64,000 bases of DNA. Origin: a bacterium (GTDB taxonomy: Bacteria; SAR324; NAC60-12). Within the stretch, counting starts at the first letter, position 1. Every line of letters starts with the position of its first letter. The notes beneath the pieces were generated by a model. It was not told the origin of the DNA. It was given only the letters and a program-made list of their open reading frames with translations, and ran no database searches. The position numbers and the translations under genes were made by a program. Of this stretch, positions 5,289 through 64,000 are shown piece by piece. The stretch covers positions 160,001 through 224,000 of the forward strand of contig CBDBHR010000027.1 of NCBI GenBank assembly GCA_965205865.1, in the 5' to 3' direction.

Positions 5289-7085
5289 ATGAGCAAACAG
5301 AGTGCGCAATCAATTGTTGACACGGCACCCACTCCGAAAAACCATGCAAAAATAATCAAAGACCTCATTGCTGAAGGAAAGGAAAAAGGATTTATCACGC
5401 TTGATGAAATCAATGCTCATTTAGGAGCCGATACTCCCAACGCGGATCAATTGGAGCGTATTTTTGATATTCTGGCTGAAATTGATATCGAGGTGGTCGA
5501 TTCCGCCAAAAATATCAGTCTGACCAAAGAGAAAAAAAGTTTTGAATTGGAAAACAAAGATGAGTTGGATCTGGAACCAGGTATTGATACTTCCACCGAT
5601 GACCCGGTGCGTATGTATTTACGGGAAATGGGAGGCATTGAACTCTTGAACCGAGATGGCGAAGTGGATGTTGCCAAGCGGATAGAAGAAGGGCAGTATG
5701 AATTGATTGCAATTTTTTCTCAATCGAATCTTGTGATCACTTATCTGTTTGAATTATCCAAAAAACTAAGGCAGAGCACCATGCGAGCGCGTCATATTGT
5801 TTCGGGGCTGGATGACGATGACAATGTGATTGAAGATGAAGCGGCTGCCGGTAAGCAACTGATTACAGTTTTGGCGAAAGCTCAAGACCATTATGAAGAA
5901 CTTCAGGCCATTCGTGCCAAGAGAAGCAGGTTAACCGACAAACAGAAGAAGAAAGCCAAGGAGTTGCGGGAGCAGATTGAGGGGTTGACGAAGAGCATCA
6001 ACTACAATTCCAGGCAGGTGGAAACCATGGGCAATGTGATGCTTAAGCATAAGGAAAAGATCGATCTCACTTATAAACAATTGCAATACTATAAAAAAAA
6101 TTTCCGCATTTCTCCTGCAGTGGCCAAATATCTTTTTAGTAGGTGGCTCAATACCACGAGCATTGATGAGAAAAACAGAATCTTGGAAATAATTGAAACG
6201 AAAAGCGGTTATGGTTTTAAAATCGCGCGACGCATTTTTGAAAAAATCCAAGCCTGCCAAAATCGAATCGACACCATGATTGAAGCAACCGCCCTCACTT
6301 GGCCTCAATTTAAAGAAGAAGTCAAACGCCTCAAGATTGCCGAGCGAAAGGTCAAGTTGGCTAAGAGCCAGTTGGTAGAAGCAAATTTACGATTGGTTAT
6401 CAGCATTGCTAAAAAGTACACCAACCGGGGATTGCAGTTCCTGGACCTCATCCAGGAAGGCAATATTGGACTCATGAAAGCAGTGGATAAATTTGAATAT
6501 CGGCGTGGTTACAAGTTCTCCACCTATGCCACTTGGTGGATTCGCCAATCGATTACCCGGGCTATTGCCGACCAGGCGCGCACTATCCGGATTCCCGTGC
6601 ATATGATCGAGACGATCAATAAGCTGTCCCGCACATCTCGGGCCTTGGTACAGGAATATGGTCGTGAACCGACTCCGGAAGAATTGGCAAAAAATATGGA
6701 CATGCCTCTCAATAAAGTACGCAAGGTGCTCAAAATCGCCAAGGAGCCTATTTCCCTGGATACTCCAATTGGGGATGACGAAGATTCACAATTGAAGGAT
6801 TTTATTGCTGATGAGAAGGCCAGCAATCCGGGAGATGCCTCCTCCTATTCCAATCTCAGCGAACTGACTCGCTATGCCTTGAGCACCCTGACACCTCGAG
6901 AAGAAAAAGTGCTGCGTATGCGTTTCGGTATTGATGAAAAAAAAGATCATACGTTGGAAGAAGTGGGGCAGGATTTTGACGTCACTCGGGAGCGCATCCG
7001 TCAAATTGAAGCCAAAGCGCTTCGCAAACTACGTCATCCAACTCGGAGCCGCCTATTGCGCTCCTTTTACGAAGGAGGACGTTGA
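5289..7085 (+). CDS. rpoD: Primary sigma factor RpoD
   Basis: Region 1.1, [51 protein letters not shown]. Confidence 0.98.
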
Positions 7086-46674: not shown

Positions 46675-47055
46675 TTATTTTACAAGGGCCGATGGAATAT
46701 CAGGACTTTTAGGATTGACTGTCACTTTTTGTAAACCGGGATTGATGATTAAATCCATATCTTCCATAGGAATTGCCCCCAATAATACGGAATCCCCCAT
46801 AACAAAGGCGCCCGTGAAGCAGTTACGGTTTTCAAAATGAATCTGAATGGGCCCCACGTAAGGAACCGCAATCACTCTGCCATCTGCCGTTGTTACCTGA
46901 CGTTTTTCCAACTCCTTCAGTTGTAGTTGAAGAGCAACCCGTTCTGAAATACAAATGGTAACGGCACCCGTATCGACAAGGGCCTCGACTTTCACCGGAT
47001 TCAAGGCGCTCTCTCTCGGATTTATCAATTCAATATCCGTATAAATCAATCCCAT
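46675..47055 (-). CDS. Clan AA aspartic protease (AF_0612-like)
   Basis: ALVDTGA, TADGR, LLGAIPMEDMDL. Confidence 0.88.
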   Translation of the reverse strand: MGLIYTDIELINPRESALNPVKVEALVDTGAVTICISERVALQLQLKELEKRQVTTADGRVIAVPYVGPIQIHFENRNCFTGAFVMGDSVLLGAIPMEDMDLIINPGLQKVTVNPKSPDIPSALVK

Positions 47056-48729: not shown

Positions 48730-50127
48730 ATGGAAAACGTGGGCGCCGTACAACTTTTCTTTGACAAGGGGACCCTCCTGCTCACCGATTTGCCCGGGGC
48801 TCTCCTCCCCCTGCTTCCGGGAATCGAATGGGACAAACGAACTCAAAGCCACCGCGCGCCGGCCTATTGCTACCGTAATATCGTGCAGGTTCTGATGAAT
48901 CAAAATACGGTCTACGAGGACCACGCCCGTCAATTCCAATCCCAAGTCTTTTCCCTGCAAAAAACGATTGAGCCACGCCCCTATCAACAAGCAGCCATGC
49001 AAGCCTGGCTGGATCAGGGATCTTACGGCATTGTGGCACTCCCGACAGGATCCGGTAAAACAATGCTGGCAGTCTTGATCATCGAAAAAACGCAACGCCC
49101 CACCATGATTCATGTACCCACCATCGATTTGATGCACCAGTGGCATTCGGTGCTCCGCCAGTACTTTGCGGGAGAGATCGGCTTGTTGGGTGGCGGTTAT
49201 CATGAAATCCAAGCCTTGACGATCGCTACCTACGATTCGGCCTTACTGCAAGTACCCCACAAAGGCAATCGATTCGGGCTGGTGATTTTTGATGAATGCC
49301 ATCATCTGCCGGGAGAACAGTATCAATACGCGGCGATCAGTTCCATCGCTCCCTTTCGTCTGGGTTTGACCGCCACTCCGGAAGGCGATGATGCGCGTAC
49401 TTCATTGTTGTATAAGCTCTCCGGTCCCCTGGCTTACCAGGCGCACATCCACGAATTGAAGGGAAAAACCCTGGCCCCCTATATCGTGCTCACCCTGAAG
49501 GTGGAAATGAACGAAAAGGAATGGAAAGATTATGTAATCGCCCGCACGTGTTACACTGATTTTTTAAAGATTGAAAAAATCAACTTCGGCCATCCAAGCG
49601 GGTGGAATTATTTCCTCTGGAAAGCAAGTCGCACTCCACATGGACGCCAGGCCTTCAAAGCCTACCTCACCCAAAAACGTCTGAGCCAGGCTTCTGAAGC
49701 AAAAATCGAAAAAATCTGGGAATTGATTCAGCAGCACCAGGGAGATCGCATCATTGTTTTCACGCAAGACAACGAAATGGCCTATCGCATCGGCAAACTT
49801 TTTTTTCTTCCCGTCCTCACCCACCTCACTAAATTGAAAGAACGGGAAAACTTCCTGCAAGCCTTTCGCCAGGGAGACTATTCGATACTGGTGACCTCTA
49901 AAGTGCTCAATGAAGGGGTGGATGTCCCGGATGCCAACGTGGCCATTGTGGTTTCCGGAAGCGGCAGCGTGCGGGAGCATGTCCAGCGTCTCGGGCGCAT
50001 CCTGCGCGGACGGCCGGGAAAACAAGCATACCTTTATGAACTGGTCTCCAAGAGTACGAGTGAACACTTCGTCAATGAAAGACGACGCCGTCATCTGGCC
50101 TACCAACAATCCAAAATCTCTCCCTGA
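48730..50127 (+). CDS. XPB/Rad25-like SF2 helicase
   Basis: PRPYQ, LPTGSGKT, DECHH, LGLTATP, EGVDVPDA, QRLGRILR. Confidence 0.88.
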   Translation: MENVGAVQLFFDKGTLLLTDLPGALLPLLPGIEWDKRTQSHRAPAYCYRNIVQVLMNQNTVYEDHARQFQSQVFSLQKTIEPRPYQQAAMQAWLDQGSYGIVALPTGSGKTMLAVLIIEKTQRPTMIHVPTIDLMHQWHSVLRQYFAGEIGLLGGGYHEIQALTIATYDSALLQVPHKGNRFGLVIFDECHHLPGEQYQYAAISSIAPFRLGLTATPEGDDARTSLLYKLSGPLAYQAHIHELKGKTLAPYIVLTLKVEMNEKEWKDYVIARTCYTDFLKIEKINFGHPSGWNYFLWKASRTPHGRQAFKAYLTQKRLSQASEAKIEKIWELIQQHQGDRIIVFTQDNEMAYRIGKLFFLPVLTHLTKLKERENFLQAFRQGDYSILVTSKVLNEGVDVPDANVAIVVSGSGSVREHVQRLGRILRGRPGKQAYLYELVSKSTSEHFVNERRRRHLAYQQSKISP

Positions 50128-50262: not shown

Positions 50263-50637
50263 TTAACCCAGTTTATTGGAAATCTCCTGCAGGAGTTTGC
50301 CGATATTGTCGAAGCCTCCCTGGGTTACTTTCTCCAGGGATTGGATCGCCAGTGTATTGGCGTCCACCTTGCTTTCCAAATCTTCGAACTTGTTTTCCAC
50401 ATTCCCGAGTTTACTTTCAACGTTCCCGAGTTTACTTTCCAGACCGTCGAATTTACGCTCCAATCTCTGCAAGCCTTCCCGGCTCTCTCTGCGGAAATGA
50501 GAGATTTCCTCAAACATTCCAACATCTCTCACCGTTTCCCGTTCTTCGATTTCATTGAATTTGTCAATCAGAAGATTGATCTGAGTTTTGGTGTCTTCAA
50601 GCGAGTCGAGCGACTCCACTTTCTGCAATACGATCAT
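50263..50637 (-). CDS. Small coiled-coil protein with heptad repeats
   Basis: ERKFDGL-ESKLGNV-ESKLGNV-ENKFEDL-ESKVDAN; RBS GGGGAG upstream. Confidence 0.75.
   Translation of the reverse strand: MIVLQKVESLDSLEDTKTQINLLIDKFNEIEERETVRDVGMFEEISHFRRESREGLQRLERKFDGLESKLGNVESKLGNVENKFEDLESKVDANTLAIQSLEKVTQGGFDNIGKLLQEISNKLG
50372..50455. repeat. Four imperfect 21-bp tandem repeats within the coiled-coil gene
   Basis: ctttccaaatcttcgaacttg / ttttccacattcccgagttta / ctttcaacgttcccgagttta / ctttccagaccgtcgaattta. Confidence 0.8.
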
Positions 50638-50776: not shown

Positions 50777-51775
50777 ATGGAGGAGCAAAAGATCGCTATG
50801 AAGTACGCCAAATTCGAGATCCGAAACCGGTTTCACCAGGACACCACTCTACCTCGCTTCAAGGGTTCCATGCTCCGTGGCGCTATGGGTCATGCCCTCA
50901 AGGCCACTATCTGCGCGGTACGGGTGAAAGTGTGCGAACCCTGCATCCTGCGCCCGACCTGCCTCTATGCCCGGATCTTCGAGGTGAAGCCGGATTACCA
51001 AAAACAAACCAAACAGGTCAACTTTCCACATCCTTACGTCCTGGAATGTTTGGAGGAGCAAACCTTTTTTCAAAAAGACGAGCCCTTTGATTTTTCCCTG
51101 ATTCTCTTTGGCGACATGACGCAGTATCTGCCTTATTTCGTATATGCCTTCGAGCAGATGGGCGAAGGAGGAATCGGCAAAAAGGTCAATGGTCAACGTG
51201 TCACTTTTTCCGTGATCGACGTGTCCTGTAATGGAGAAAGGATCTACGAGGAAAACCGGCGCACTCTGCCCGAGGTCATTCCTTTTGTACAACTCGCGCT
51301 TCCTGAGTCTCCGGAACAGGAAATCACCGGAATGCGGGTACATTTTGAAACCCCGCTGAGGGTCAAGAACAGGGGACAGTATGCCAGAACCCTGGATTTC
51401 GTGACCCTGCTGCGCACCCTGCTGCGCCGTGTCCAACATCTATGGCAGGAATTTGACGGTATGCCCCTCGATCTCAACGAAAAAGCCCTGCTGCAAATTG
51501 CGGAAACCGTGAAAACTCAAAATCAACATCTTCACTGGGAAGAACAAACCCGTTTTTCCAACAGACAGCAAAACCGGCAAAACCTGGGTGGACTGAAAGG
51601 CAATATTGAATTCAAGGGGAACCTGACCCCTTTCATACCCCTGCTCGACCTGGCCCGCCTGCTCCATATCGGCAAAGCCACCAGCTTCGGCCTGGGAAAA
51701 CTGGACTATGACATCATCGCAAAAACGAACGGTTCGCTGGAGATTCCCGTGAAACAGGTCACGGCGTTCTACTAG
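50777..51775 (+). CDS. cas6: CRISPR pre-crRNA endoribonuclease Cas6 (Cys-cluster type)
   Basis: GSMLRGAMG, C..C.PC....C cluster, PHPYV, FETPLR, C-terminal Gly loop HIGKATSFGLG; heads the cmr operon. Confidence 0.9.
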   Translation: MEEQKIAMKYAKFEIRNRFHQDTTLPRFKGSMLRGAMGHALKATICAVRVKVCEPCILRPTCLYARIFEVKPDYQKQTKQVNFPHPYVLECLEEQTFFQKDEPFDFSLILFGDMTQYLPYFVYAFEQMGEGGIGKKVNGQRVTFSVIDVSCNGERIYEENRRTLPEVIPFVQLALPESPEQEITGMRVHFETPLRVKNRGQYARTLDFVTLLRTLLRRVQHLWQEFDGMPLDLNEKALLQIAETVKTQNQHLHWEEQTRFSNRQQNRQNLGGLKGNIEFKGNLTPFIPLLDLARLLHIGKATSFGLGKLDYDIIAKTNGSLEIPVKQVTAFY

Positions 51776-51817
51776 AATTTATAATTTGTGGCAATATGAT
51801 ATGAGAAAAAGGTAACC

Positions 51818-52876
51818 ATGACAGTCTCTGTAGCACGATATTATCAGCGGGAGAAAATCTCTCTCGATTGCACTATTTTAACTCCTATGTTCTTGGGAAA
51901 TGCCGACCAACATGCTGCGCTTTCTGCTGCCCCTATCAAAGCGGCTTTGCGCTACTGGTGGCGCGTCAGCGGGGTGCATAATGCAAAAAATTCGGAGGAA
52001 TTGTTTAAAAAGGAAAGTTGTCTTTTTGGCAGTGCCGATGAAAAATTTGGCAGAAGTAAAATCTCGGTTTCAGTGGAAGGCATAGTTCAGGCGAGTGATA
52101 ATCAATTCCGCTCACCTCACAAAATACAACATCCCGAAGTTCAACTAGGAAAAATCAGTTCATTACTATATCTGGCAAACATGGGAATATTGCATCCATA
52201 CCTCAAACCAAAATTCAATTATTTTCCAACCCTGCAAACATTCAAAATCCACTTATCGTTTCCTGAAAATCTGAACGACCAGTTTCTTCCAACTTTATTT
52301 TTATTCCAACATCTGGGAAGTCTCGGAGCACGGTCGAGAAATGCTTGGGGAAGTGTCGGTATTTCTTCTGGATACACCTCTAAAGAAATTCCAGACAATA
52401 TTCCCATACAACCTTGGGAAGTCCTTTTTGAACAGGATTATCCTCATGGAATAGGCAAAGACGAGAAAGGGGTTTTGTTGTGGGAATCGAAAAACACATT
52501 CTCAAAGTGGGAAGAAGCTATGCATATCTTGGCAGAATCTTATGTAGAACTGAGAACCAATGATCCTTTCAAATTCCCTCAAGCATCACTTCCACACAAA
52601 GATCCACAACCTCGGCACTTGCTCGGATACCCTGTTGGAAAAACTCATCGAGTAAAAGATTGGCCAAATTCCGCGCGAAGCGCATCAGAACTGCGCTTTT
52701 CACTCAAACCAAGAGAGAATCGGTTAAAAATAGTTATTTTTCATGTCCCCCATTTGTTTGACAGATCTATGATTAAAACACGACCTCTCAGCCTAAAAGA
52801 AGAACAAATTAAAATCTGGAAACAAGTTCACAACTATTTTGACCAATCTGACCAATTCCAACGAGCGACTCTTTAA
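51818..52876 (+). CDS. cmr1: Type III-B RAMP Cmr1
   Basis: LTPMFLG, IKAALRYWWR, LFGS, GSLGARSRNAWGS. Confidence 0.88.
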   Translation: MTVSVARYYQREKISLDCTILTPMFLGNADQHAALSAAPIKAALRYWWRVSGVHNAKNSEELFKKESCLFGSADEKFGRSKISVSVEGIVQASDNQFRSPHKIQHPEVQLGKISSLLYLANMGILHPYLKPKFNYFPTLQTFKIHLSFPENLNDQFLPTLFLFQHLGSLGARSRNAWGSVGISSGYTSKEIPDNIPIQPWEVLFEQDYPHGIGKDEKGVLLWESKNTFSKWEEAMHILAESYVELRTNDPFKFPQASLPHKDPQPRHLLGYPVGKTHRVKDWPNSARSASELRFSLKPRENRLKIVIFHVPHLFDRSMIKTRPLSLKEEQIKIWKQVHNYFDQSDQFQRATL

Positions 52877-52885
52877 AGGAAAATT

Positions 52886-55807
52886 ATGCCATTAACCAAA
52901 CCAACTGCGGCCTATTGGGACGAAAAGCTTTCGGTGTATCTTCATGATCCTTTTACCAAGTCTTTCCGCATTCAAGGGCATGAACAGGTAGCTAACGAAA
53001 TTTTGAATGTCATGGGGCTTTCTCTTCCTGACAAAGATGTCTACAAGGCGGCAGATCAAATTGCATCAGGGATGGATCGCGCCCAAGTTCCAGGATTTGA
53101 CCGTGATCCTCAGAAAAATGGAGCAATCGATTTTACCACGACTGCTCGTCTTACACATCCGACTGGAAAAAATGGTAGTCTTCCCGTCCGACTTCCGGAA
53201 AAATTACAAAACGTGACACCGGCCGCTGTGGCACAACTCAACCAGGAAGTGATGCATTTTCTCAATTCGGCCAACTCTATTGGAAGTCAAGCCGATCAAG
53301 GAAGTCTTTCTGATCAGTTCAAGGAAGACCCTGAAAAATTCGCGTATGTACGTTTTACGTATGTACATCTGTTGCTGCGACATGAATTGACGAGACACAA
53401 CATCAGTCAGATTGGACCACTATGGGCGCGCCTTCCCGCCGATACCCGCATTCCGGATCATAGCATCTGGCAGCACAATGGTCTGGTTTCCGCTCTCCAT
53501 TCCAGCATGCGGGAAAGCCGGGATCACAAAGCAGCATTGATGGTGTATTCTCTGACACCAGTGCAGGGGTTTATTGCCAGGGCCCGAAAACTACGGGATT
53601 ACTGGACGGGATCTGTTATCTTATCCTGGCTGGCATTTTGCGGGATTCGCGCGGTGATGGAATACTTGGGAGCCGATCATATCCTCTATCCTTCCCTCAT
53701 TGATCAGCCCCTGGTGGAAAATTATTGCGACCATCAATTTGATCAATGGGAAAAATTGGAACACAACAAACATGCCAATAAATCCATCGCATCCTTTCCC
53801 AACAAATTTGTCTGTCTGGTCCCCAAAGGCAAAGAACAGGATTGCGCAGAAACAATCCGCGAATCTATAAATGGCGCATGGCGGGGTCTCACTGAAGAAA
53901 CACTGAAATTTCTCAAGCAAGTTACCCAACAGGATCATTGTAATCTTCAGAAATTGTTCGACAGACAAAGCAAATCATTTTGGGAACATCAATGGGCGTC
54001 AACTCCTCTGCTGAGCAAAAAGGAAGCAGATTTGTGCGAGGAGTTGTTGGGAAAAGAAAGAACTCAAAAGGATCTGGAATTCATGAAGAAAAATGTGCAA
54101 TTTTCAAAAGATCGTTATGGATCATACGATGAGGGTTTTTCTGCACTTTACGGGTTGTCACACAAACTGGCCCAATCCGGCTTGGCATCCATCAAGAGTT
54201 GCAAATTCGATGAAAGAACCTGTGAGCCCGGCATCAAGTGCCAACAATGTGGAGAATTTGAAATTGTAACGGTGCAACCGGGTGAAAACCCATCTTCGAA
54301 AGAAACGGTGCAACCGGATGAAAATCCATCTTTGAAAAAAGATATATTTTGGTGTCAATTACGAAAAAACTGGCAAAAACGGTACAACGCTACCGATTTC
54401 AAGGTTACTGAACGATTGTGTTCGATTTGCTTGACCAAACGTATTGCCTACCAGGTTTGTGAAGAAAACCAACCCAACTCCTTATCTTCTCTGATGCAGC
54501 TGAAATATATTTTAACGAGAGAAAAATCCTTCGCCTCTTCAACGGACGTCGCGCTGTCTGATATGTTTGATTTTGCTGAAACGCAAAATATCATAGACAA
54601 AGAACAGCGCAAAAAACTGGCTCAATATATCCATCAACGTGAAGGGGGAACTCAGGAGGAAAAAGTTAATGAAGAGAGACTGCTCGAAAAAGAACGGTAT
54701 AAATTATTTGCCGATTTGAAAGAGAAAAATAGACCGTATACGGAGGCTGACAACTACTACGCTATTCTCTTGATGGATGGAGATCACATGGGCAAACTGG
54801 TCAATGGCGAAACCGTTGCTTCCACATGGATGAGCGTTTTGCATCCTGATTTAGCGAAGCGGCTTGATTCTCCGGAATTCGATACGGATTTCAAAGAATA
54901 TTGGGAAAGCCAGAAATTGCTTTCGCAAAGACGGTTGGCTCCTGCCCTTCACGCCTCCATTTCGGAATCCTTGGGTGATTTCTCGATTTATGGAGTCCCA
55001 GCGATCATCAAACGCCACCGAGGGCACTTGATCTACGCCGGTGGTGATGACGTTTGCGCAGTGATGCCGGTTTCCTCCGTCCTGGCAGCGGCTGAAGAAA
55101 TTGCGAAATTATACTGCGCAGGATTCGTAGGTTACAAAAACGCATCTCGGGAGCAAACAGGAAATCATGAAATTTTTAATGGCAGCATTCCATTGAATGT
55201 TCAAAATTCCGAATTCCAGAAACTATCAGTCCATTTGGGTAAAGGATTTAGCATCTCAGCGGGCATACATATCTGTCATCATAAAAAACCTCTGACCACT
55301 GCCTTGCAGCGAGCGCATCAACTCTTGGATGATGAAGCGAAAAGGAAGACGGAACGAAACGCAGTCGCAATTGAATTGGACAAGCGCAGCGGAGGAAGTC
55401 GGGTGTATTCCAGCAAGTGGGAAGGATCCGATTCAACCCTGGAAGATTTCAAGTCCATCGGGAAAGCACTTGGGAAAGATTCGCGGGATCTGAGTTCTTC
55501 CCTGGCATACCGTCTGGAAACTTTCAAAGAGGGTTTGATCAGCATTTCCGAAAGTGAGAATTCCTCGAAACGGATGGCCAATTTTATTGCTGCCCAAATG
55601 GACCGGTCCGAGGTGACTTTTGAAGCCGAACCCACTCTCTCTAAAATGGAAAAAGAATCAGAAAAAAGAAAAGAACAGCATAAGCTGGCTCAGAGCATTG
55701 TCCGTGTGATTCGGAAATCCAAGGACGCCCTGGCGCTTGAATCTCTGATTGTCGCCAAATTCCTTGGAGAACGGGTATGGAGAAAAGAACAAGATGATAA
55801 AAAATAG
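52886..55807 (+). CDS. cas10: Type III-B large subunit Cas10/Cmr2
   Basis: LHDP and AADQIAS..DR (HD domain), PADTRIPDHS, PVQGFIARARKLRDYW, CQQC/CSIC, MDGDHMG, YAGGDD palm motif. Confidence 0.96.
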   Translation: MPLTKPTAAYWDEKLSVYLHDPFTKSFRIQGHEQVANEILNVMGLSLPDKDVYKAADQIASGMDRAQVPGFDRDPQKNGAIDFTTTARLTHPTGKNGSLPVRLPEKLQNVTPAAVAQLNQEVMHFLNSANSIGSQADQGSLSDQFKEDPEKFAYVRFTYVHLLLRHELTRHNISQIGPLWARLPADTRIPDHSIWQHNGLVSALHSSMRESRDHKAALMVYSLTPVQGFIARARKLRDYWTGSVILSWLAFCGIRAVMEYLGADHILYPSLIDQPLVENYCDHQFDQWEKLEHNKHANKSIASFPNKFVCLVPKGKEQDCAETIRESINGAWRGLTEETLKFLKQVTQQDHCNLQKLFDRQSKSFWEHQWASTPLLSKKEADLCEELLGKERTQKDLEFMKKNVQFSKDRYGSYDEGFSALYGLSHKLAQSGLASIKSCKFDERTCEPGIKCQQCGEFEIVTVQPGENPSSKETVQPDENPSLKKDIFWCQLRKNWQKRYNATDFKVTERLCSICLTKRIAYQVCEENQPNSLSSLMQLKYILTREKSFASSTDVALSDMFDFAETQNIIDKEQRKKLAQYIHQREGGTQEEKVNEERLLEKERYKLFADLKEKNRPYTEADNYYAILLMDGDHMGKLVNGETVASTWMSVLHPDLAKRLDSPEFDTDFKEYWESQKLLSQRRLAPALHASISESLGDFSIYGVPAIIKRHRGHLIYAGGDDVCAVMPVSSVLAAAEEIAKLYCAGFVGYKNASREQTGNHEIFNGSIPLNVQNSEFQKLSVHLGKGFSISAGIHICHHKKPLTTALQRAHQLLDDEAKRKTERNAVAIELDKRSGGSRVYSSKWEGSDSTLEDFKSIGKALGKDSRDLSSSLAYRLETFKEGLISISESENSSKRMANFIAAQMDRSEVTFEAEPTLSKMEKESEKRKEQHKLAQSIVRVIRKSKDALALESLIVAKFLGERVWRKEQDDKK

Positions 55808-55826
55808 CACGATATAAAGGAGAACG

Positions 55827-56930
55827 ATGAGCATACAGTCTATTGACCTGACGCCGGTGGATACCCTTTTCTTCCGGGGTGCGGAGCCGATGGTGACAGG
55901 AGAGAATCATCATGTCACCATTTTGTTTCCGCCTATGCCTTCCACCATCCTGGGAGCCTTGCGCACAGGGATGCTGGTTCAAATTCAAAATCCAAAGATC
56001 TCTTTTCAAGACTTTACAACAGGGAAGACAATTGACGGGATCGTGGGAGAGCTTTTGGGATCACCGGATCAACCAGGATTTTCCCTGACAGGTCTCCTGT
56101 TTTCCGTCCGGCAACATGGCAACGAGTTACTCTTTTTTCCGGCTCCTGCTCATTGGTTCGTGTGCAAACAGGAGTTGGACCGGATAAAGGAAAGAACCAC
56201 AGCACCCGTTCAAATCCAAATCATTCCAAGCCGACCTTTGCCTGCGAGGGCAAAAGAGTTCGGGCTTTGTTCGTCCTTAACGAAGGAATGGCATTGGGCT
56301 ACAGCCAGGGATGGTCAGGAACTGGTTTCTTTAGAGGGGTATTGGGTCTCTGAAACTCTGTTGAAATCGCCAGACACCGGGAAAGCACTTTCTAAATTGG
56401 ACCAATTGAAAGATCTAACTTCTACGGAAAAGATAATTCTTCCGTCACAGGCATTCTATGTTTCCGAAACGAGAACCGGCATTGCGCGTAAAAGGGATAA
56501 AACGGTAAAGGATGGACATTTATATTCAACCACCCACATCCGTTTGTATCCGGAAGTGAGTTTGAAAGTATTTGTCGACAAATCTCTGGAGAAGGCTTTG
56601 TCTCCTTCAGGAATCCTGCAACTTGGAGGAGAACAGCGAGTGGTTCATTACCACCTGGAGCATTCCCCCCAATTGCTGAACGAATCAACCATGGGAAAAA
56701 CCTGGCTGGCCTTATCTCCTGTCACATCCAAAACAGTGGCACGGCTGAATCCTGATGGGATCGCTTCCGGCAAACTGCAACGCATTGGAGGCTGGGAGAT
56801 GAAAAAGGGAAACGATACAGATAAGACACGAGGATTTCACCGTCCTATGGAAGGCTGGTATCCCGCGGGAACAGTCCTGTTTTTTAAAGAACCTCAAAAA
56901 GTCGCTGACAGTTTTTTTGTCATCGATTGA
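55827..56930 (+). CDS. cmr3: Type III-B Cmr3 (Cas5 group)
   Basis: PVDTLFFR, FPPMPSTILGALR, ETRTGI, LGGEQR, IGGW, PAGTV. Confidence 0.9.
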   Translation: MSIQSIDLTPVDTLFFRGAEPMVTGENHHVTILFPPMPSTILGALRTGMLVQIQNPKISFQDFTTGKTIDGIVGELLGSPDQPGFSLTGLLFSVRQHGNELLFFPAPAHWFVCKQELDRIKERTTAPVQIQIIPSRPLPARAKEFGLCSSLTKEWHWATARDGQELVSLEGYWVSETLLKSPDTGKALSKLDQLKDLTSTEKIILPSQAFYVSETRTGIARKRDKTVKDGHLYSTTHIRLYPEVSLKVFVDKSLEKALSPSGILQLGGEQRVVHYHLEHSPQLLNESTMGKTWLALSPVTSKTVARLNPDGIASGKLQRIGGWEMKKGNDTDKTRGFHRPMEGWYPAGTVLFFKEPQKVADSFFVID

Positions 56931-56968
56931 TAGCACCGAATCTATTTTGTTTAAAAGGAGAACAAACT

Positions 56969-57940
56969 ATGTTTTTAGCTGATCATTCTGCAATTCTGAC
57001 ATTTTACACAATCACACCCATGCATGCCGGCTCCGGTAGTGCAACCGGCGCGGTTGACCTGCCCATCCAAAGAGAACGGCATACCGGAAGACCCATTGTA
57101 CAGTCCTCCGGAGTCAAGGGAGCTTTGCGCGACGCAGTTGAACAAAAGATTTGTTATGACTGGAAACAGGCGAACCATAAAACCAAGCAGGATTGCATCA
57201 ACAAAACCAAAGAAATCTGTGCGATTTTTGGTGCTGAGAACGAATCAAATGAAAATGGGGATCGAATTGACCAAGCTGGAGCTTTGTCTGTTTCAGATGC
57301 GAAAATCCTCCTGTTCCCAGTACGTTCTTCCCATGCTCCATTTTTGTATGTGACGTGCCCTTCTATTCTCAGACAGTTGAATAGTGACCTGAAAATCGTT
57401 GGTATGCACACACTGAGTGAGCTTGTAACAAATGATCAAAAGCAGGGTTTCGGACTGGGAAAAAACTTGGTCAACAGAGCTTGCGATACAGGGGGAATGA
57501 TCCTGGAAGATATGAGGGTTGGAGTCGAGGAGCACCCTAAAGCTGAAAAGCTCAAAGAGGGCTTATGTCGCTTTGCAGTTCCTTATGGTGAAGATGTTCT
57601 GGAAAAGACAGTGCTGCTTCGCGACGAAGATTTCAATTACATTATTGAGAGCACCTGTCCCGTACAAACCCGCATCAAACTAGGTCCAGGTGGCACGACT
57701 TCAGAATCAGGAGGAAATCTCTGGTACCAGGAATTGTTGCCCAACGACACGCTTATGTATGCGGTCGTTTTTCTTTCAGCAGAAAAGACACTTCAGGAAA
57801 ATGCTAGAACTGCAGATCATTTATATGATTGGCTGACAAAGAAGGGAAATTTACCGGAACATATTCAAATGGGTGGAGACGCCTCTCTAGGTAGAGGTTT
57901 TTGTGAATTGAAATGGATTGAAAAGGAGAACAGATTATGA
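56969..57940 (+). CDS. cmr4: Type III-B Cmr4 (Cas7 group RNase)
   Basis: TPMHAGSG, GAVDLPIQRE (catalytic Asp retained), SSGVKGALR, LLFPVRS, QMGGDASLGRG; RBS AAGGAG, start 56969. Confidence 0.94.
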   Translation: MFLADHSAILTFYTITPMHAGSGSATGAVDLPIQRERHTGRPIVQSSGVKGALRDAVEQKICYDWKQANHKTKQDCINKTKEICAIFGAENESNENGDRIDQAGALSVSDAKILLFPVRSSHAPFLYVTCPSILRQLNSDLKIVGMHTLSELVTNDQKQGFGLGKNLVNRACDTGGMILEDMRVGVEEHPKAEKLKEGLCRFAVPYGEDVLEKTVLLRDEDFNYIIESTCPVQTRIKLGPGGTTSESGGNLWYQELLPNDTLMYAVVFLSAEKTLQENARTADHLYDWLTKKGNLPEHIQMGGDASLGRGFCELKWIEKENRL

Positions 57941-58311
57941 ACTTGTCACAAAAACGTTCCAAATTTGCTTTAGACAAGTTGGATAAGTTAAGCGCGCATG
58001 GATCATTAAAAGAAGCAGGATTTGATAGTTACACTGCTGGTCTACCTTCAATGGTATTGAGCAATGGGTTAGCTCAAACCTTTGCATTTATCCTGAGCAA
58101 GGTGTCAGAAAAGCCAAAAGGAAAGGAGGTGCTTAATTGGACAAAGGAATGGCTGGAGGAACAAGGGAAAATTAAAGAAACAGCAGATCACAAAGATTTC
58201 ATGAAGGAAATTTCCTCAATGCCTCAAAGCCAGTATCTTGCCAGCCAAAAGGAATGTTTATTACTTTGGGAATGGATCAAACGATATTCAAATTCAAACC
58301 TTTTTAATTAA
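57937..58311 (+). CDS. cmr5: Type III-B small subunit Cmr5
   Basis: QKRSKFA, LPSMVLSNGLAQTFAF, WIKRY; 124 aa between cmr4 and cmr6. Confidence 0.92.
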   Translation: MNLSQKRSKFALDKLDKLSAHGSLKEAGFDSYTAGLPSMVLSNGLAQTFAFILSKVSEKPKGKEVLNWTKEWLEEQGKIKETADHKDFMKEISSMPQSQYLASQKECLLLWEWIKRYSNSNLFN

Positions 58312-58319
58312 GGGGTTGT

Positions 58320-59735
58320 ATGACAGAAGTTACCGGAAAAACGCTTCAAGAGAATCCTTATCTTTGGCGAGCTGTTTCTAAAGAAGTTAATGAAGTTTTA
58401 CATAAGGTATTAAATGGTTCAGAGCCTGCTTTCAATTTAGGACTTTATGCCAGAAAATGGTCTGTTTTTGCTTTTAATGTGTTGAAAGATAAAGATCGTT
58501 GGCGTTGCCCTTCCAACAGCGAAAATATTTGGTGGGAAAAAAAATACAGAAATGAGCAAAAACCTCAAGAAATCAAGCAGGCAGAGGAGAGAGGAAATAA
58601 CTTAAATTCCATACAGAAATGCTTTAATAAACAACAATACCCTGATGCAATTCAATCTGCCGAGAAAGCCTTAATTCAAATTCATATACGATTTTCAGGT
58701 ATCATTCAAACATATAAACAACAAGGATACAAAACCTATCTTCTCTCACTTTCAATGCGGTCCCCTTTGGTGCATGGTTTGGGAGAAACCCACCCGATGG
58801 AAAAATTTCTTACCTTTGACCGGAATACAGGCATTCCTAATATTCCTTCCACTTCAGTAAAGGGAGTCTTGAAAACCCGTTTAATGATTCAGGAATTGAA
58901 TAACTGGAGCTTGAAGACAACTGATGAATGCTTGGCGGCCAAGAAAGAAGGATTCTTAATAAAAAACAAAGAACACGAATATCTGGTCAATGAAAATTAC
59001 CCACTTTTCAAAGAACTCTTTGGTGGTGCAGAAGAGCAAGGGAAAGCAGAGAGCCAGGCACAACGGGGAAAAATTATTTTTTTAGACGCATTTCCTGCCA
59101 CCTTTCCCCGCTTGAAAAAGGAGATCATGACACCACACTATGGTAATTATTATTCTGGAAAAGGAAAAATCGGCCCCACTGAATCCCAGCAACCGGTTCC
59201 TAATGCTTATCTCAGCGTTGATCCGCAGCATGGTCAGCAAAAATGGAACTTTGTGTTCTTGATCCATCCCGATCTATCTCAAAAACATCCGGAATATATC
59301 GAAAAATTCATGCGGGTTTTTGAAAACAAAGATGTGTCGGATATTGGCTTTGGTTCCAAAACGGCTATTGGATTCGGACAATTTGCTCCCATTTCTCTGC
59401 AAAAATGGAAAGAAGAAGAGGAAAAACAGAAGGAAAAAGAACAGATGGAAGCAAAACGAAAAAAAGAGGAAGCCCGGTTGGCAGCAGAGGCAAAGGCTCA
59501 AGAAGAAAAACGGGCACTAATGTCCCCTGTGGAAAAATTGATTGAAGCATTGAAAACCATCCCCCAATATAAAGACCGTTTCCATGAATTGGAAAAATTT
59601 GAAGGAGGTGACAAAATCAAACTGGCTCGATTCTTCAAAGAAAAATTCATGGAAAACCAGGAATGGGACGTCAAACCTAGAAGGGAAAAGCAGTTTGACA
59701 AAGTACAGAAAATTCGAGGGATTTTAGGGGAATAG
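58320..59735 (+). CDS. cmr6: Type III-B Cmr6 with C-terminal extension
   Basis: LVHGLG, GIPNIPSTSVKG, GKIIFLDAFP, IMTPHY, GFGSKTAIGFG. Confidence 0.92.
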   Translation: MTEVTGKTLQENPYLWRAVSKEVNEVLHKVLNGSEPAFNLGLYARKWSVFAFNVLKDKDRWRCPSNSENIWWEKKYRNEQKPQEIKQAEERGNNLNSIQKCFNKQQYPDAIQSAEKALIQIHIRFSGIIQTYKQQGYKTYLLSLSMRSPLVHGLGETHPMEKFLTFDRNTGIPNIPSTSVKGVLKTRLMIQELNNWSLKTTDECLAAKKEGFLIKNKEHEYLVNENYPLFKELFGGAEEQGKAESQAQRGKIIFLDAFPATFPRLKKEIMTPHYGNYYSGKGKIGPTESQQPVPNAYLSVDPQHGQQKWNFVFLIHPDLSQKHPEYIEKFMRVFENKDVSDIGFGSKTAIGFGQFAPISLQKWKEEEEKQKEKEQMEAKRKKEEARLAAEAKAQEEKRALMSPVEKLIEALKTIPQYKDRFHELEKFEGGDKIKLARFFKEKFMENQEWDVKPRREKQFDKVQKIRGILGE

Positions 59736-61898
59736 ATGAACCTCCTCCTCACCACCTTGGGCATGTCTTGGGCGATAGTGCCGGAACTGCTGGGTTTCAG
59801 CAATCCGCAACAGCTTGATTTGTATGCGCATCACCCGGAAGCTGAAAAGATTGTTACCGACCGGGAAAATTATGACATCCAGTCGGTGGATGAGATTTGG
59901 ATTGTGACGACCGGAGGATCACAGGCGGCTCAAAGCATAGCGACGCTGCAATCCTGGCATCAGGCACTGGGCTTGATGCCTCCTCTCCGTATCTTCCAGG
60001 CAGAAAGCACGGATCATCTGAGCAGCCCGCAGGAATGCCGGTGGATGAAGGAGTTGATTCTGCGTGTGGTGCTACAGGCTCAAGCGCGGGTTGGTGAGGG
60101 GCAGGTCCTGCTTTCCCTGACAGGAGGTCGTAAGACTATGAGTGCCGACATGCAGCAAGCGGCCTTGTTTTTTGGATGCCATGCTCTACTGCACGTCATT
60201 GACCAGGAAACCATCCCGCAAGCCCTGCGCAGGCCGGAACCGTCATATTTTCTAACGCCTTTCCCGGAACAATGGGCCTCGATTTTTATGCCGGTCGTGG
60301 TAGGTGGTCAATATCCGAAAAGCATCGTCCTTAGTTACCAGTATCCTGTTGCAGGGATCCATGAGCGATTTCCGCTGCCGGAATGTCCTGAAAACGGCCT
60401 TGTCTCGGTCCCGCCTCAAACCGAATTGGGGGAACACGTCAATCAAATGCAGAAAGAATCGCAATATGTCTTTGTCAACCATTCCCGCCAGCTTCGACAG
60501 GAATCCCCGGCATCCAACTTCCTGGCCTTATATCATCTTCCCCCGCAGCAGATTCAAGCCCTGAAAGAACAAAAATTTGGAGTGTCCCCGGAGAAAAAAC
60601 GGGATGAACGGGAGTGGCTTCATCAGCTTCCCAAAGCGGAGTTGCACTGTCACTTCGGAGGTGCTGCCAGTGCTGAAGACATGATCGCGATTGCTCGCGC
60701 CCATGAGATGCATTTAACGAAGTATCACAAGGCTTTGCAAGCCTGGCGTCAGGAATGGGAGCCTTTGGTGCGGCAAGGTAATGCCGGTGGAATTCGGGAT
60801 CGCCTGGAAAAACAAATGAGGGTGAAAGAATCCAGCGTTCTCAAAGTAATCAGACAGTCAGTGAAAGGTGTGCCCGGATATGTTTGCGTCTCGGCGTTTA
60901 TCCTGCTTTTCTCGGAGTCCCCGGAGTTGTTGGATGCCGTGATCTTTGGCCCTTTTCAGGAGGAAAAGAATTTTTTCAATATTGGCATTGATCGCTATGA
61001 AGCATTGGGAGATTTGCAAGGTTCGGCCCTCTTGCAAACCAGAGTAGCCATTCAAATGGCCTGTCGGCTCCTGCTGGAAAAAGCCTGTCAACATCGAGTA
61101 CGCTATTTGGAAATTCGTTGCTCGCCTGTGAATTATACGCATGGTGGGTTGGAAGCAATCGAAGTGGTTGGGGCCATTCAGGAAGTTTGCCAGCAATATA
61201 AGGACAGATTGACAACCAGATTGTTGTTCATGGCCAGCCGCCATGGAAAGATGAGTACAGTCTACCAGCATATCGAACTGGCAGAGGAGATCTGGAAGCA
61301 GGAAAGCCACTCCTCGGATGAGTCTTTTTTAATTGGCTTTGATCTGGCGGGAAATGAGGAATTCCGCAAGGCTGCAGAAATGAGGAGCGCCTTCATGCCT
61401 TTGCTGCAACGCTGCGCAAGATTGACCATTCATGCTGGTGAGACCGACGATGCCACCAGCGTTTGGGAAGCGGTGTATCTTCTAGGTGCGGACCGCATTG
61501 GACATGGACTCACTCTAAAAAATAAGCCGGAGTTGCTTCAACGTTTCATAGACCGGAGGATTACCCTGGAGATGTGCCCTTCCAGTAATTTTCAGATTGT
61601 CGGATTCCGGGACAACTATGTGCCAGAATCCATCAGTACGGCAAAATATCCTTTGAAAGAATATCTGGAGAAAGGCTTGAAAGTCACCGTCAATACGGAC
61701 AATCCTGGCATTTCTCGCACTGATTTCACTAACGAACTTCACCGGGCGGCCCGGCTCACACCCGGAGGCTTGAGCGCCTGGGAAATTCTCCAATTGGTCC
61801 GCAATAGTTTCCGCGCGGCATTTGTTTCACATAGCATCTCCAAAAAACTCATTCTCAAAGCCGAAGAAGAGATTCTGGAAATTTTCAATAAAACCTGA
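59736..61898 (+). CDS. cad1: CARF-adenosine deaminase fusion (Cad1/CAAD-type type III effector)
   Basis: CARF motifs LLTTLGMSWAIVPE and SLTGGRKTMS; deaminase motifs LPKAELHCH, GFDLAGNE, TIHAGE, DRIGHG, EMCPSSN, VNTDNP; starts immediately after the cmr6 stop. Confidence 0.9.
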   Translation: MNLLLTTLGMSWAIVPELLGFSNPQQLDLYAHHPEAEKIVTDRENYDIQSVDEIWIVTTGGSQAAQSIATLQSWHQALGLMPPLRIFQAESTDHLSSPQECRWMKELILRVVLQAQARVGEGQVLLSLTGGRKTMSADMQQAALFFGCHALLHVIDQETIPQALRRPEPSYFLTPFPEQWASIFMPVVVGGQYPKSIVLSYQYPVAGIHERFPLPECPENGLVSVPPQTELGEHVNQMQKESQYVFVNHSRQLRQESPASNFLALYHLPPQQIQALKEQKFGVSPEKKRDEREWLHQLPKAELHCHFGGAASAEDMIAIARAHEMHLTKYHKALQAWRQEWEPLVRQGNAGGIRDRLEKQMRVKESSVLKVIRQSVKGVPGYVCVSAFILLFSESPELLDAVIFGPFQEEKNFFNIGIDRYEALGDLQGSALLQTRVAIQMACRLLLEKACQHRVRYLEIRCSPVNYTHGGLEAIEVVGAIQEVCQQYKDRLTTRLLFMASRHGKMSTVYQHIELAEEIWKQESHSSDESFLIGFDLAGNEEFRKAAEMRSAFMPLLQRCARLTIHAGETDDATSVWEAVYLLGADRIGHGLTLKNKPELLQRFIDRRITLEMCPSSNFQIVGFRDNYVPESISTAKYPLKEYLEKGLKVTVNTDNPGISRTDFTNELHRAARLTPGGLSAWEILQLVRNSFRAAFVSHSISKKLILKAEEEILEIFNKT

Positions 61899-61917
61899 TG
61901 ATCTCCACTGGAGTCAA

Positions 61918-63237
61918 ATGATGCAAAAAATCCTTTTTGTCAGCGTGGGAGGTTCATACCAACCTATCGTCAAAGCCATTGAGTCCCTTAAGCCAGAGCG
62001 AACTGTTTTTTTCTGTTCCACCGGAAGCCATTCCCAGGTTATCGGGAAAGGTAAACCTTGTGAGCAACGGAAAGGTTCCGAGATAGTAAAAAAGCTTCCC
62101 AATATCCCGACACAACTGCAAATGGGAGAGCAATTCAATCCGGACCAGGATGTTCTGGAGGTCCGGAACCCCGACGATTTCCAAGAGTGCTACGAGGCGC
62201 TTAATGAAAAGATTCACCAATTGCGGCGGATGCCTGGCGACTACCAATTCATGGCTGATTACACAGGGGGCACCAAAACCATGTCGATGGCACTGGCGAT
62301 GCTTAGCATGGATCAAGGCATTCCACTCTACATCACCACCCGTTCTACCCGAGATAACATAATAAAAGTTGAACATGGTGAATTTACTGAAAGAGTGCCT
62401 GTTTCTGCAATCATCGCCCAGCGAAAATGCGAGCAAACACTTCCTTTATTATTGGAAAACTACAATTACGCTGCTGCTGTAAACGAGCTGCAAGGTCTGC
62501 TGCGAGGAATGGAACTAATTCCGGAACTCAAACAGAAATTGCATAAACGCAGGGATTGCTTTGCGGCATTTGAATGCTGGGACCGTTTCCAACACATTGA
62601 GGCCCTGCACCTGTTAGAACCTTATATGCGCTCTTCAGAGATCCAATCTTATGGAATATTCCTCAGGCAGGTCATCCACAGCCGCAGGCAAATCGACATG
62701 CCCTTTGAAGCAAAAGGAGGAACCAAAGGACATGGGTATGAGTTGATCCTCGATTTGCTGCTCAACGAGGAACGCTGCAAAGCACAGAAACGTTTCGACG
62801 ATGGAATTGCCCGGATTTACCGGGCCGTGGAATTGCTGGCGCAGATGAGATTGGCATATAAATATGGAGTCAAAACCGGGGAGGTGGATCTGCAATGCAT
62901 TCCGGACAAGTTGCATGAAAAATACAACCAATATCGTTCTCCCACAACCGATAAGATCGAACTGGGTTTGGACAAAAGCTATAAATTGCTGGAAGATTTA
63001 CAAGACCCTTTAGGGCAGCACTACCAGAAAAATCTTCAAAAGGTTCGTAACGCATTGACCGGTAGAAATCATTCCTTTCTCGCCCACGGCTTCACCCCGA
63101 TTTCCGGAGAGGACTACGAAGCTACAAATAAAGTACTGACAGGGTTCATCCGGGAGGCGCTGCGTTTGTTGATTCCATCAAAATACATATTTGAATTTCC
63201 TGAACAATTTCCACGAACTCTCGATTTTCATCCGTAA
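61918..63237 (+). CDS. CARF-HEPN ribonuclease (TIGR02710/Csm6-Csx1-like)
   Basis: ILFVSVGGSYQPI and DYTGGTKTMS CARF motifs; RIYRAVE; RNHSFLAHG HEPN motif; start 61918 or 61921 after GGAG. Confidence 0.85.
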   Translation: MMQKILFVSVGGSYQPIVKAIESLKPERTVFFCSTGSHSQVIGKGKPCEQRKGSEIVKKLPNIPTQLQMGEQFNPDQDVLEVRNPDDFQECYEALNEKIHQLRRMPGDYQFMADYTGGTKTMSMALAMLSMDQGIPLYITTRSTRDNIIKVEHGEFTERVPVSAIIAQRKCEQTLPLLLENYNYAAAVNELQGLLRGMELIPELKQKLHKRRDCFAAFECWDRFQHIEALHLLEPYMRSSEIQSYGIFLRQVIHSRRQIDMPFEAKGGTKGHGYELILDLLLNEERCKAQKRFDDGIARIYRAVELLAQMRLAYKYGVKTGEVDLQCIPDKLHEKYNQYRSPTTDKIELGLDKSYKLLEDLQDPLGQHYQKNLQKVRNALTGRNHSFLAHGFTPISGEDYEATNKVLTGFIREALRLLIPSKYIFEFPEQFPRTLDFHP

Positions 63238-63255
63238 TTGAGGAGTCTTTGTCTT

Positions 63256-64000
63256 ATGATCGTCTACGTCAAACACCAGGGAGCGATCATTTCCCGCAGG
63301 GGCACACCCTGCAGGTCCGCAAGGACCATGCGCTGTGCCAGACCATTTTTGTCCACCGTCTGCAACAATTGGTGATCCTGGGCAATGCCATGCTGACGCT
63401 TTCGGCCATCAATCTGCTCTGTCGGGAAAAAATCGACACGATCTTCCTCACCCTCAACGGCCGCTACAAGGGGCGTCTGGAAACCGAAGAGAGCAAGAAC
63501 GTCTTTCTGACCAAGAAGCAGTTCGATTCCCTGACCGACCCGAGCTTCGGGCTCAAGTTCGCCCGGGCAATCGTGGCAGGCAAGCTCAGCAACATGGCCA
63601 CTCTCTTAGGGCGCATCAAAAGACGCAACAAACACCTGCGTTCCCAGGACTTTGACAAGCAGGTCAACGCCATCCGTCTCCTGCTCCCGAAGGTGGCCTG
63701 CGCTGACAGCCTGGAATCCCTGCGAGGTTTCGAAGGGCATGGCACCGCCACCTTTTACCAGGGCTTTCGCAACGGATTCAAGCAGGACTGGAATTTCCGC
63801 AAGCGCATCCGACGTCCGCCCACCGATCCAGTCAATTCCATCCTGTCTTTCCTCTACACGCTGCTGTTCAACCGGGTGTATGCAGCAGTGCGGGTAGCAG
63901 GTCTCTATCCGGCGGTGGGCTACCTGCACTCACTGGATTACGGACGCTATTCTCTGGTATTGGACTTGATGGAGGAATTTCGCTCCATTGTCGTGGAAAC
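63256..64000 (+). pseudogene. cas1: CRISPR integrase Cas1 with 1-nt frameshift near 63298; runs off window end
   Basis: ATG 63256 gives MIVYVKHQGAIISR; the -1 frame continues GHTLQVRK...NGRYKGRL...LRGFEG...RRPPTDPVNSILSFLY...GYLH...SLVLDLMEEFR. Confidence 0.9.

Follow-up and report, generated by a model that had tools for sequence, protein, structure and literature searches.

How does a type III-B CRISPR-Cas locus that carries two effectors of the kind activated by cyclic oligoadenylate (cOA), and no recognisable gene for a stand-alone ring nuclease, switch its own signal off? The question is raised by a locus of a SAR324 bacterium that occupies the last 13 kb (positions 50777-64000) of the stretch analysed here, a 64,000-nt window corresponding to positions 160001-224000 of contig CBDBHR010000027.1 (C27). 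The contig continues for 10.9 kb past the window end, and that part, labelled L001, was also analysed, together with the assembly as a whole (4.74 Mb in 30 contigs, 91.9% complete). With a probability of roughly 0.78, judged from the sequence and from analogy with characterised systems, we read it as a complete and apparently functional type III-B (Cmr) locus with two cOA-activated effectors, a CARF-adenosine deaminase (Cad1, also named CAAD) and a CARF-HEPN RNase of the Csx1/Csm6 kind (Csx1 hereafter), in which shut-off of the signal is most likely intrinsic. Gene identities come from Pfam, NCBIfam and PADLOC scans, solved homologues were compared in phmmer alignments, and predicted structures are AlphaFold2 (AF2) models compared by Foldseek.

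Ten open reading frames (ORFs), all on the plus strand, follow one another from window position 50777, spaced by -4 to 42 nt. The three scans confirmed the order that the original prediction had proposed, a tight same-strand run of cas6-cmr1-2-3-4-5-6-[CARF-deaminase]-[CARF-HEPN]-cas1, so that Cmr1, Cmr3, Cmr4, Cmr5 and Cmr6 are all encoded in one operon with Cas10/Cmr2. Cmr1, Cas10/Cmr2, Cmr4, Cmr5, Cmr6, the CARF-HEPN protein (TIGR02710) and Cas1 score above the curated NCBIfam cut-offs, while Cmr3 and Cas6 lie under the NCBIfam cut-offs but over the Pfam ones. The features of the locus, in window positions unless the contig is named, are the following.

50777-51775, plus strand: cas6, the CRISPR RNA (crRNA)-processing endoribonuclease, 332 amino acids (aa); Pfam CRISPR_Cas6 65.4 bits (cut-off 25), PADLOC 3.8e-90, TIGR01877 27.5 bits (under its cut-off of 58.65)

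51818-52876, plus strand: cmr1, RAMP subunit, 352 aa; TIGR01894 33.4 bits (cut-off 28.65), a Pfam RAMPs match, PADLOC Cmr1 2.2e-16

52886-55807, plus strand: cas10/cmr2, 973 aa; TIGR02577 225.5 bits (cut-off 79.4), Pfam Cmr2_N and Cas10-Cmr2_palm2

55827-56930, plus strand: cmr3, 367 aa; Pfam Cas_Cmr3 127.3 bits (cut-off 21), TIGR01888 88.2 bits (under its cut-off of 100.4)

56969-57940, plus strand: cmr4, backbone RAMP, 323 aa if read from the ATG, the ORF itself opening with TTG at 56927; TIGR02580 196.3 bits (cut-off 87)

57937-58311, plus strand: cmr5, small subunit, 124 aa; Pfam Cas_Cmr5 97.3 bits, TIGR01881 55.5 bits (cut-off 27.9)

58320-59735, plus strand: cmr6, 471 aa with a RAMP core at about aa 143-355; TIGR01898 104.4 bits (cut-off 51.1)

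59736-61898, plus strand: cad1/CAAD, CARF-adenosine deaminase, 720 aa; PADLOC CARF5--CARF_ADA 2.1e-217 over aa 1-718

61918-63237, plus strand: csx1/csm6-like CARF-HEPN RNase, 438-439 aa; TIGR02710 185.1 bits (cut-off 83.9)

From 63249, plus strand, cut by the window end: cas1, full length 386 aa ending at C27:224410; Pfam Cas_Cas1 241 bits

C27:224412-224696 (L001:2413-2697), past the window: cas2a, 94 aa

C27:224706-224990 (L001:2707-2991), past the window: cas2b, 94 aa

C27:225229-227837, past the window, in the orientation of the cas operon: CRISPR array of 36 identical 35-nt repeats

The interference genes appear to be intact where it matters for signalling. Cas10 carries an HD pair (H20 D21), a palm-1 motif (D631-G-D633), a GGDD motif (719-722) and CxxC pairs at 452 and 512, all of which line up with their equivalents in the solved Cmr2 9l7c_B in a phmmer alignment. 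In Cmr4, D30, presumably the catalytic, RNA-cleaving Asp, lies within 'VDLPIQRERHTG' and is aligned to 'IDLPIQRERHTG' of the solved Cmr4 3x1l_C, and the block DLPIQRERHTG is kept in the alignment with both 3x1l_C and 9x25_D. Cas10 thus retains HD and GGDD and Cmr4 its Asp, as had been claimed, and the intact motifs of Cas10 predict what is apparently a signalling-competent cyclase and HD nuclease. The Cas10 palm-2 model matches this cas10 alone in the assembly, and a second Cas10 was not found.

A genome devoid of a cognate array, the case that the original prediction had set against itself, is not what was found: 36 repeats adjoin the locus at C27:225229-227837, so that this objection falls. 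The array starts 1.2 kb past the window, separated from cas2b by a leader of 238 nt, and contains 35 unique spacers of 35-41 nt. Its repeat terminates in ATTACGAC, which we take to resemble the 8-nt 5' tag (handle) of type III crRNAs. On the strand co-transcribed with the cas genes, 29 of the 35 spacers exceed 50% pyrimidine (61% overall, against about 50% in the genome), a bias that would fit crRNAs antisense to purine-rich mRNAs. In the rest of the assembly no spacer was matched over its full length, and the best partial match covers 28 nt with 3 mismatches; at E<=0.01, Rfam recognised neither CRISPR-DR nor any other family in the array. Some adjacent spacers are alike (C27:225264-227802, L001:3265-5803): Tandem Repeats Finder gives 68-83% across repeat-spacer units and all spacers are T-rich, a likeness that could derive from repeated sampling of related targets or merely from shared composition. 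The tandem cas2 genes that follow cas1 share just 29% identity, and paired cas2 matches at separate positions were also observed in the related loci L006, L007, L011 and L064.

The first of the two effectors, Cad1, combines a CARF domain at its N-terminus with an adenosine-deaminase TIM barrel at its C-terminus (Pfam A_deaminase, 165 bits, and Cas_NE0113), with the CARF motifs G9-x-S11 and G130-G-R-K133-T and the deaminase motifs H304-x-H306-F-G308-G, H566-A-G-E569, H590 and D655-N656. In an alignment of 18 homologues, H304, H306, G308, H566, H590, D655 and N656 are invariant, and so is the CARF motif-II residue K133 within its GGRKTMS block; K133 is the equivalent of K106 in the Cad1 of Thermoanaerobaculum aquaticum (TaqCad1), reported to be required for binding and cleavage of cyclic tetraadenylate (cA4) (PMC12669630). 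In addition, G308 and N656 correspond to TaqCad1 G264 and N549, the Gly after HxH and the Asn replacing the second Asp that distinguish Cad1 from ordinary adenosine deaminases (PMC12669630). TaqCad1 is also the best PDB sequence match (9ebt, 4.7e-60), in a deposit titled 'CRISPR-associated ring nuclease and adenosine deaminase', and the top 30 Foldseek matches of the AF2 model (predicted local distance difference test score, pLDDT, 88) are all Cad1/CAAD chains, with each solved Cad1/CAAD matched along the full length of the model. By homology, window Cad1 is predicted to deaminate ATP to inosine triphosphate (ITP) as a hexamer in a cOA-dependent manner. Its CARF domain, taken separately, is nearest to that of the ring-nuclease-active TaqCad1 (8.6e-09) and shows a weak likeness to the Crn1 protein Sso2081 (E ~0.1).

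The second effector had been described as a CARF-HEPN protein beginning at a TTG at 61822, with a 77-nt overlap with cad1. The identity stands (Pfam 'Csm6 HEPN domain' PF09670, 111.5 bits against a cut-off of 27; PADLOC CARF1--CARF_HEPN, 2.8e-130) and the start does not: because homologues usually have 438 aa, translation most likely begins at the Met-Met pair at 61918/61921. The protein displays the CARF motifs G11-G-S13 and D114-Y-T-G-G-T-K120 and the HEPN motif R383-N-H-S-F-L-A-H390; across 19 sequences, the GGS and DYTGGTK blocks and HEPN residues R383, N384, S386, A389 and H390 are invariant. Its AF2 model (pLDDT 86) is best matched in Foldseek by Thermus thermophilus Csm6 (8jbb/8jh1/5fsh; template modelling score 0.57-0.65, E 6e-13), and phmmer found no PDB sequence match at E<=0.01. 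The nearest sequence relatives outside the group of the host are cyanobacterial TIGR02710 proteins, at about 50% identity.

Neither in the window nor in the 91.9%-complete assembly could a stand-alone ring nuclease be recognised, which bears out the earlier claim that none is visible. No match was found in the 4.74 Mb to Csx3 (PF09620), Crn2/DUF1874 (PF08960), Csx16 (PF09652) or Csx20 (PDLC01659), the negatives being weaker for PF09620 and PF09652, on which the control genomes were silent too. The Crn1 model (NF040581) matched only the CARF domains of both effectors, under its cut-off, and the general CARF models PF09651 and PF09623 matched Cad1 only, with no further CARF family found in the assembly. 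Csx15 was covered solely through the mixed model PDLC01038, and the scan excludes Crn4; TIGR02619 gave no match either, a negative on which no weight is placed. One candidate was considered and discounted: a PDLC01038 'Csx15/20/peptidase' match (E 0.002) at C30:768063-768614 (L085:4064-4615), in an ORF that is also a weak aspartyl-protease match (E 7e-4, under the Pfam cut-off) and that has a gene of a PD-(D/E)XK transposase family on one side and an unannotated ORF on the other, with recA about 2.5 kb away. In relatives, a Csx20 gene separates the last RAMP gene from the CARF effector (L069, L070, L080) or immediately precedes cad1 (L027), so that a slot occupied elsewhere is empty in the window locus. 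Such an absence is not unusual but the condition of the majority, since in a survey of 38,742 genomes known stand-alone ring nucleases are reported to accompany only 39% of effector-bearing type III loci, and 34% of those with Csx1 (PMC12409355).

The closest published counterpart suggests how such a locus can do without one. In the type III-B system of T. aquaticum, a Cmr operon is likewise followed by Cad1/CAAD and Csx1 (PMC12993439, NAR 2026; PMC12669630, EMBO J 2025). According to these papers, TaqCAAD converts ATP to ITP when activated by cA4 or cyclic hexaadenylate (cA6), TaqCsx1 responds to cA4 only, and co-expression of the two results in additive target-dependent growth arrest. Both TaqCad1 and TaqCsx1 degrade cA4, and the ring-nuclease activity of Cad1 damps Csx1 (PMC12993439, PMC12669630), so the shut-off question is answered for T. 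aquaticum. Nor is the company of a second effector peculiar to that organism, as 76% of 121 CAAD systems have additional CARF effectors (PMC12993439).

The T. aquaticum pair supports, by analogy, the proposal that one cOA signal would drive both nucleotide-pool poisoning and RNA degradation (PMC12993439, PMC12669630); since the two papers describe the same architecture, the mechanism put forward in the original prediction is the published one. As for its corollary, that shut-off must come from a CARF domain itself or from a gene outside the window, the CARF route is upheld by the same pair and the 'must' is not, as TaqCsx1 continued to process cA4 in constructs from which one module, CARF or HEPN, had been removed (PMC12993439/PMC12669630).

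Both loci have genes for a CARF-adenosine deaminase and a CARF-HEPN RNase behind those of a Cmr complex, together with adaptation genes; no Nudix partner is reported for T. aquaticum, and Cad1 shows the same motif-II Lys, deaminase ligands and G/N substitutions (PDB 9ebt, 9ubl and others). They differ in host lineage and in the size of Cad1, which has 720 aa in the window against 625 aa in T. aquaticum at a Foldseek identity of 26-28%, the CARF domain of the window protein being longer by some 24 residues (aa 21-48) and its deaminase domain by some 67 (aa 319-415). At the adenine-stacking position, window Cad1 holds an Arg where TaqCad1 has a Tyr. The two Csx1 proteins are likened by CARF-HEPN class and by place in the locus, not by sequence.

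Taken together, a model can be outlined for the window locus. Cas6 and the 36-repeat array would supply crRNAs to the six-subunit Cmr complex, and upon binding of a complementary transcript Cas10 would turn ATP into cOA. cA4, or possibly cA6, would then bind the CARF dimer of hexameric Cad1 and trigger deamination of ATP to ITP, and binding of cA4 to the CARF dimer of Csx1 would activate the HEPN RNase; the combined ATP deamination and RNA cleavage would arrest both the infected cell and the phage. The signal would most likely be terminated along three routes. Cutting of target RNA by Cmr4 ends cOA synthesis and constitutes a further shut-off route, which would operate here once Cmr4 has cleaved the bound transcript. 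In addition, Csx1, and probably Cad1 too, would cleave cA4 at the CARF site, and the HEPN site possibly does so as well, along the lines demonstrated for the T. aquaticum pair and for T. thermophilus Csm6.

Several observations weigh against this reading. Window Cad1 is only 23-28% identical to the solved Cad1 proteins in Foldseek alignments, and the position of TaqCAAD Y105, whose replacement by Ala abolished activation (PMC12993439), is held in this subfamily by an invariant Arg (R132). The Cad1 of Bacteroidales cleaved neither cA4 nor cA6 according to PMC11645235. In a BLAST search of the whole array against a phage collection, no match and thus no protospacer was found. Finally, the assembly is 91.9% complete, the DNA past the array is unassembled, and the ring-nuclease scan was carried out without Crn4 and Csx15-only models. 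No sequence rule separates ring-nuclease-active from inactive Cad1, and because the Bacteroidales protein did not cleave its ligands, the contribution of Cad1 to shut-off here is probable, not established.

The possibility of a dedicated ring nuclease that escaped detection is connected to the state of the contig end. The segment C27:227842-234922 (L001:5843-12923) is the reverse complement of C27:218911-225990, with 99.97% identity over 7081 nt, the source beginning at window position 58911 and running past the window end. The orientation switches within a truncated reversed repeat, 4 nt beyond repeat 36; the ten spacers past the junction are exact reverse complements of spacers 1-10 in the order 10 to 1; and the contig end falls within the mirrored cmr6. 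The near-identity, the junction inside a repeat, the exact mirroring of the spacers and the ending inside cmr6 all argue that this 7-kb copy is probably a fold-back assembly artefact. The copies are not identical, differing at two sites, a substitution in cad1 (window 60086, G/T) and an indel in csx1 (window 62123), and the deposited protein set of the contig contains Csx1 proteins of both 438 and 318 aa, as would be expected if the duplication were real and the genome carried two convergent copies of cmr6'-cad1-csx1-cas1-cas2-cas2 plus the array start, the second with a frameshifted csx1. Against this, the indel that frameshifts the mirrored csx1 sits in a G run (GGG/GGGG), as expected from consensus error at low coverage, and we consider a genuine duplication improbable. 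The probable fold-back implies that the deposited protein set carries duplicate and broken copies, and that the assembly does not reach what really follows the array on its trailer side.

A ring-nuclease gene could therefore lie hidden past the array, since the contig ends in the inverted copy joined in a repeat, or else in the ~8% of the genome absent from the assembly, or it could belong to an unmodelled family (Crn4, Csx15 or an undescribed one), the more so as Csx20 occupies this slot in L069, L070, L080 and L027 and further ring-nuclease families are expected by the authors of PMC12409355. On the other hand, six family models and two general CARF models run over 4.74 Mb matched the effectors alone, the sole weak PDLC01038 match being the aspartyl-protease-like ORF near recA; the operon leaves gaps of at most 42 nt; and, as the same survey indicates, most effector-bearing loci are devoid of a known ring nuclease (PMC12409355). 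On balance a hidden dedicated enzyme appears unlikely. Somewhat less remote, though still doubtful, is a division of the signal, in which Cad1 would respond mainly to cA6 and Csx1 to cA4, giving two partly independent arms of which only the cA4 arm would be self-limiting. TaqCAAD responds to cA4 and cA6 and TaqCsx1 to cA4 only (PMC12993439), TaqCad1 cleaved cA4 and left cA6 intact (PMC12669630), and the CAAD named LngCAAD was solved with cA6, as the titles of 8z3k and 8z3p state. Moreover, the residue after the motif-II GG varies, being Tyr in Taq, Phe in Lng, Ile in Bacteroidales and Arg in window Cad1, so that ligand preference may differ as well. Nevertheless, TaqCad1 is reported to bind cA4 about 100-fold more tightly (13 nM, against ~1.4 uM for cA6; PMC12669630), and no sequence feature examined separates cA4 from cA6 responders. 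A shared cA4 signal that Csx1, and probably Cad1, would help to remove remains the reading that we favour.

Beyond T. aquaticum, other characterised proteins place the two effectors of this locus in their families. The Bacteroidales Cad1 (PMC11645235, Cell 2024; PDB 9c67 and others) is the same CARF-ADA fusion, and its fold matches the predicted model of window Cad1; it is described as a hexameric ATP-to-ITP deaminase activated by cA4 or cA6 (PMC11645235). It differs in its 600 aa, in its type III-A locus and in the Ile that follows the motif-II GG. LngCAAD, so named in PMC12993439 (PDB 8z3k, 8z3p, 8z40), likewise shares effector family and fold. For the CARF-HEPN protein, the best full-length structural match of the model is T. 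thermophilus Csm6 (5fsh; 8jbb with A2>p; 8jh1 with cA4), which differs by a sequence identity of just 16-18%; the latter enzyme was crystallised with the cleavage product A2>p and is therefore self-limiting.

The length of window Cad1 is itself common, as the best 120 of 562 homologues measure 683-797 aa. All five distinct solved Cad1 sequences have 600-635 aa, leaving this long form without a solved representative, and the Cad1 tree of the Cell 2024 paper was restricted to homologues of 550-650 aa (PMC11645235), a filter by which the long form was excluded.

A further feature of this locus is found at the end of Cmr6. Residues 356-471 (window 59385-59735) make up a single Glu/Lys/Arg-rich helix, some 45 residues long, and after it a basic helical domain of about 70 aa, with the consensus ...MSPE..I...L..F....K..LA.ALK.....GKW..K...KQ..K.QKIK..L.E. 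No Pfam family matches this module over its cut-off, the ESM Atlas returned a 0.77 match to an unnamed cluster only, and no literature on a C-terminal extension of Cmr6 in type III-B systems was found. The module nonetheless recurs: it also terminates the final RAMP gene in further type III loci, constitutes a separate ORF in L027, and in a profile search matched 349 cluster representatives (E<=0.001), of which 106 at E<=1e-10, out of 1.84 billion, lying at the extreme C-terminus in nearly all of the best 150 of the 349. That the module might be specific to Cad1 loci was considered and rejected, since among 209 genomes of one class 17 have the module, 10 have Cad1 and 4 have both; three of five Cad1-bearing genomes without the module also contradict it. 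At the far end of speculation, the module could be a flexible tether that holds Cad1, Csx1, Csx20 or nucleic acid by the cyclase, and in loci with neither Nudix nor stand-alone ring nuclease the long-form Cad1 might act as both effector and main off-switch, locally at the complex.

The surroundings of cad1 in other genomes were compared using 61 Cad1 loci from one-genome-per-species contigs, of which 44 had usable flanks and yielded 116 neighbouring ORFs for scanning; the tblastn screen of the 61 loci is insensitive to diverged Cas proteins, and its blanks are not absences. A TIGR02710-like csx1 was detected by tblastn near cad1 in three of the 61 loci (L051, L053, L064), and Card1 neighbours cad1 in seven of the 44. 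A family of proteins of about 200 aa lies directly 3' of cad1 in 21 of the 44 (L007, L014, L015, L018, L020, L026, L032, L033-L035, L037-L039, L041, L042, L044, L047, L050, L053, L054 and L062), with ten of these ORFs matching Pfam NUDIX at E<=1e-4. A CAAD-Nudix hydrolase pairing is cited in PMC12993439, and the window locus differs from it, no Cad1-associated Nudix gene being present in locus or assembly. By tblastn, no member of this Nudix family was found in the genome of the window, where csx1 occupies that place, so that the locus belongs to the Nudix-less, Csx1-bearing kind, like that of T. aquaticum.

Both effectors have close relatives in metagenomes, at 80-89% identity for Cad1 and 75-95% for Csx1. 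One contig of 489,513 nt is common to the two match lists, and two contigs hold members of the 90% clusters of both proteins. Full-length Cad1 was found in two of 40 relatives of the host (50% and 46% identity) and is missing from the only one that shares its genus; the distribution of the locus is thus patchy. The ArgJ of the host has its best named matches in SAR324-cluster genomes (75%).

Away from the main array, an orphan mini-array on the minus strand of contig C26 (C26:~235721-235900, L092:~6222-6400) contains the 35-nt repeat of that array in two perfect copies and a degenerate third one, with two spacers; it is flanked by DDE transposase genes, and no cas or accessory genes were found within ~6 kb. 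It should be noted that the array finder used was crude and flagged 23 repeat regions, of which the one on C27 is the CRISPR array; four others were inspected and set aside, as their fixed periods of 50-74 nt look like tandem repeats and not CRISPR.

Upstream of the operon, three further genes were annotated in the window.

46675-47055, minus strand: small ORF resembling a retroviral-type aspartyl protease, probably unrelated to CRISPR

48730-50127, plus strand, upstream of cas6: XPB/Rad25-like SF2 helicase, 465 aa (ResIII, Helicase_C and XPB damage-recognition domain)

50263-50637, minus strand, just upstream of cas6: coiled-coil ORF of 124 aa

The Cad1-Csx1 dual-effector III-B design is already in print for T. 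aquaticum, and the present locus is a good but ordinary example of it that by itself settles no open question. It is nevertheless a natural, intact example of the Cad1-Csx1 type III-B arrangement from a lineage distant from the one studied, and the arrangement, with neither a Nudix partner nor a ring nuclease, thus recurs beyond T. aquaticum. In practical terms, it offers a second, divergent Cad1-Csx1 pair in which ring-nuclease activity and cOA preference can be compared, and it points to an uncharacterised module at the C-terminus of Cmr6.

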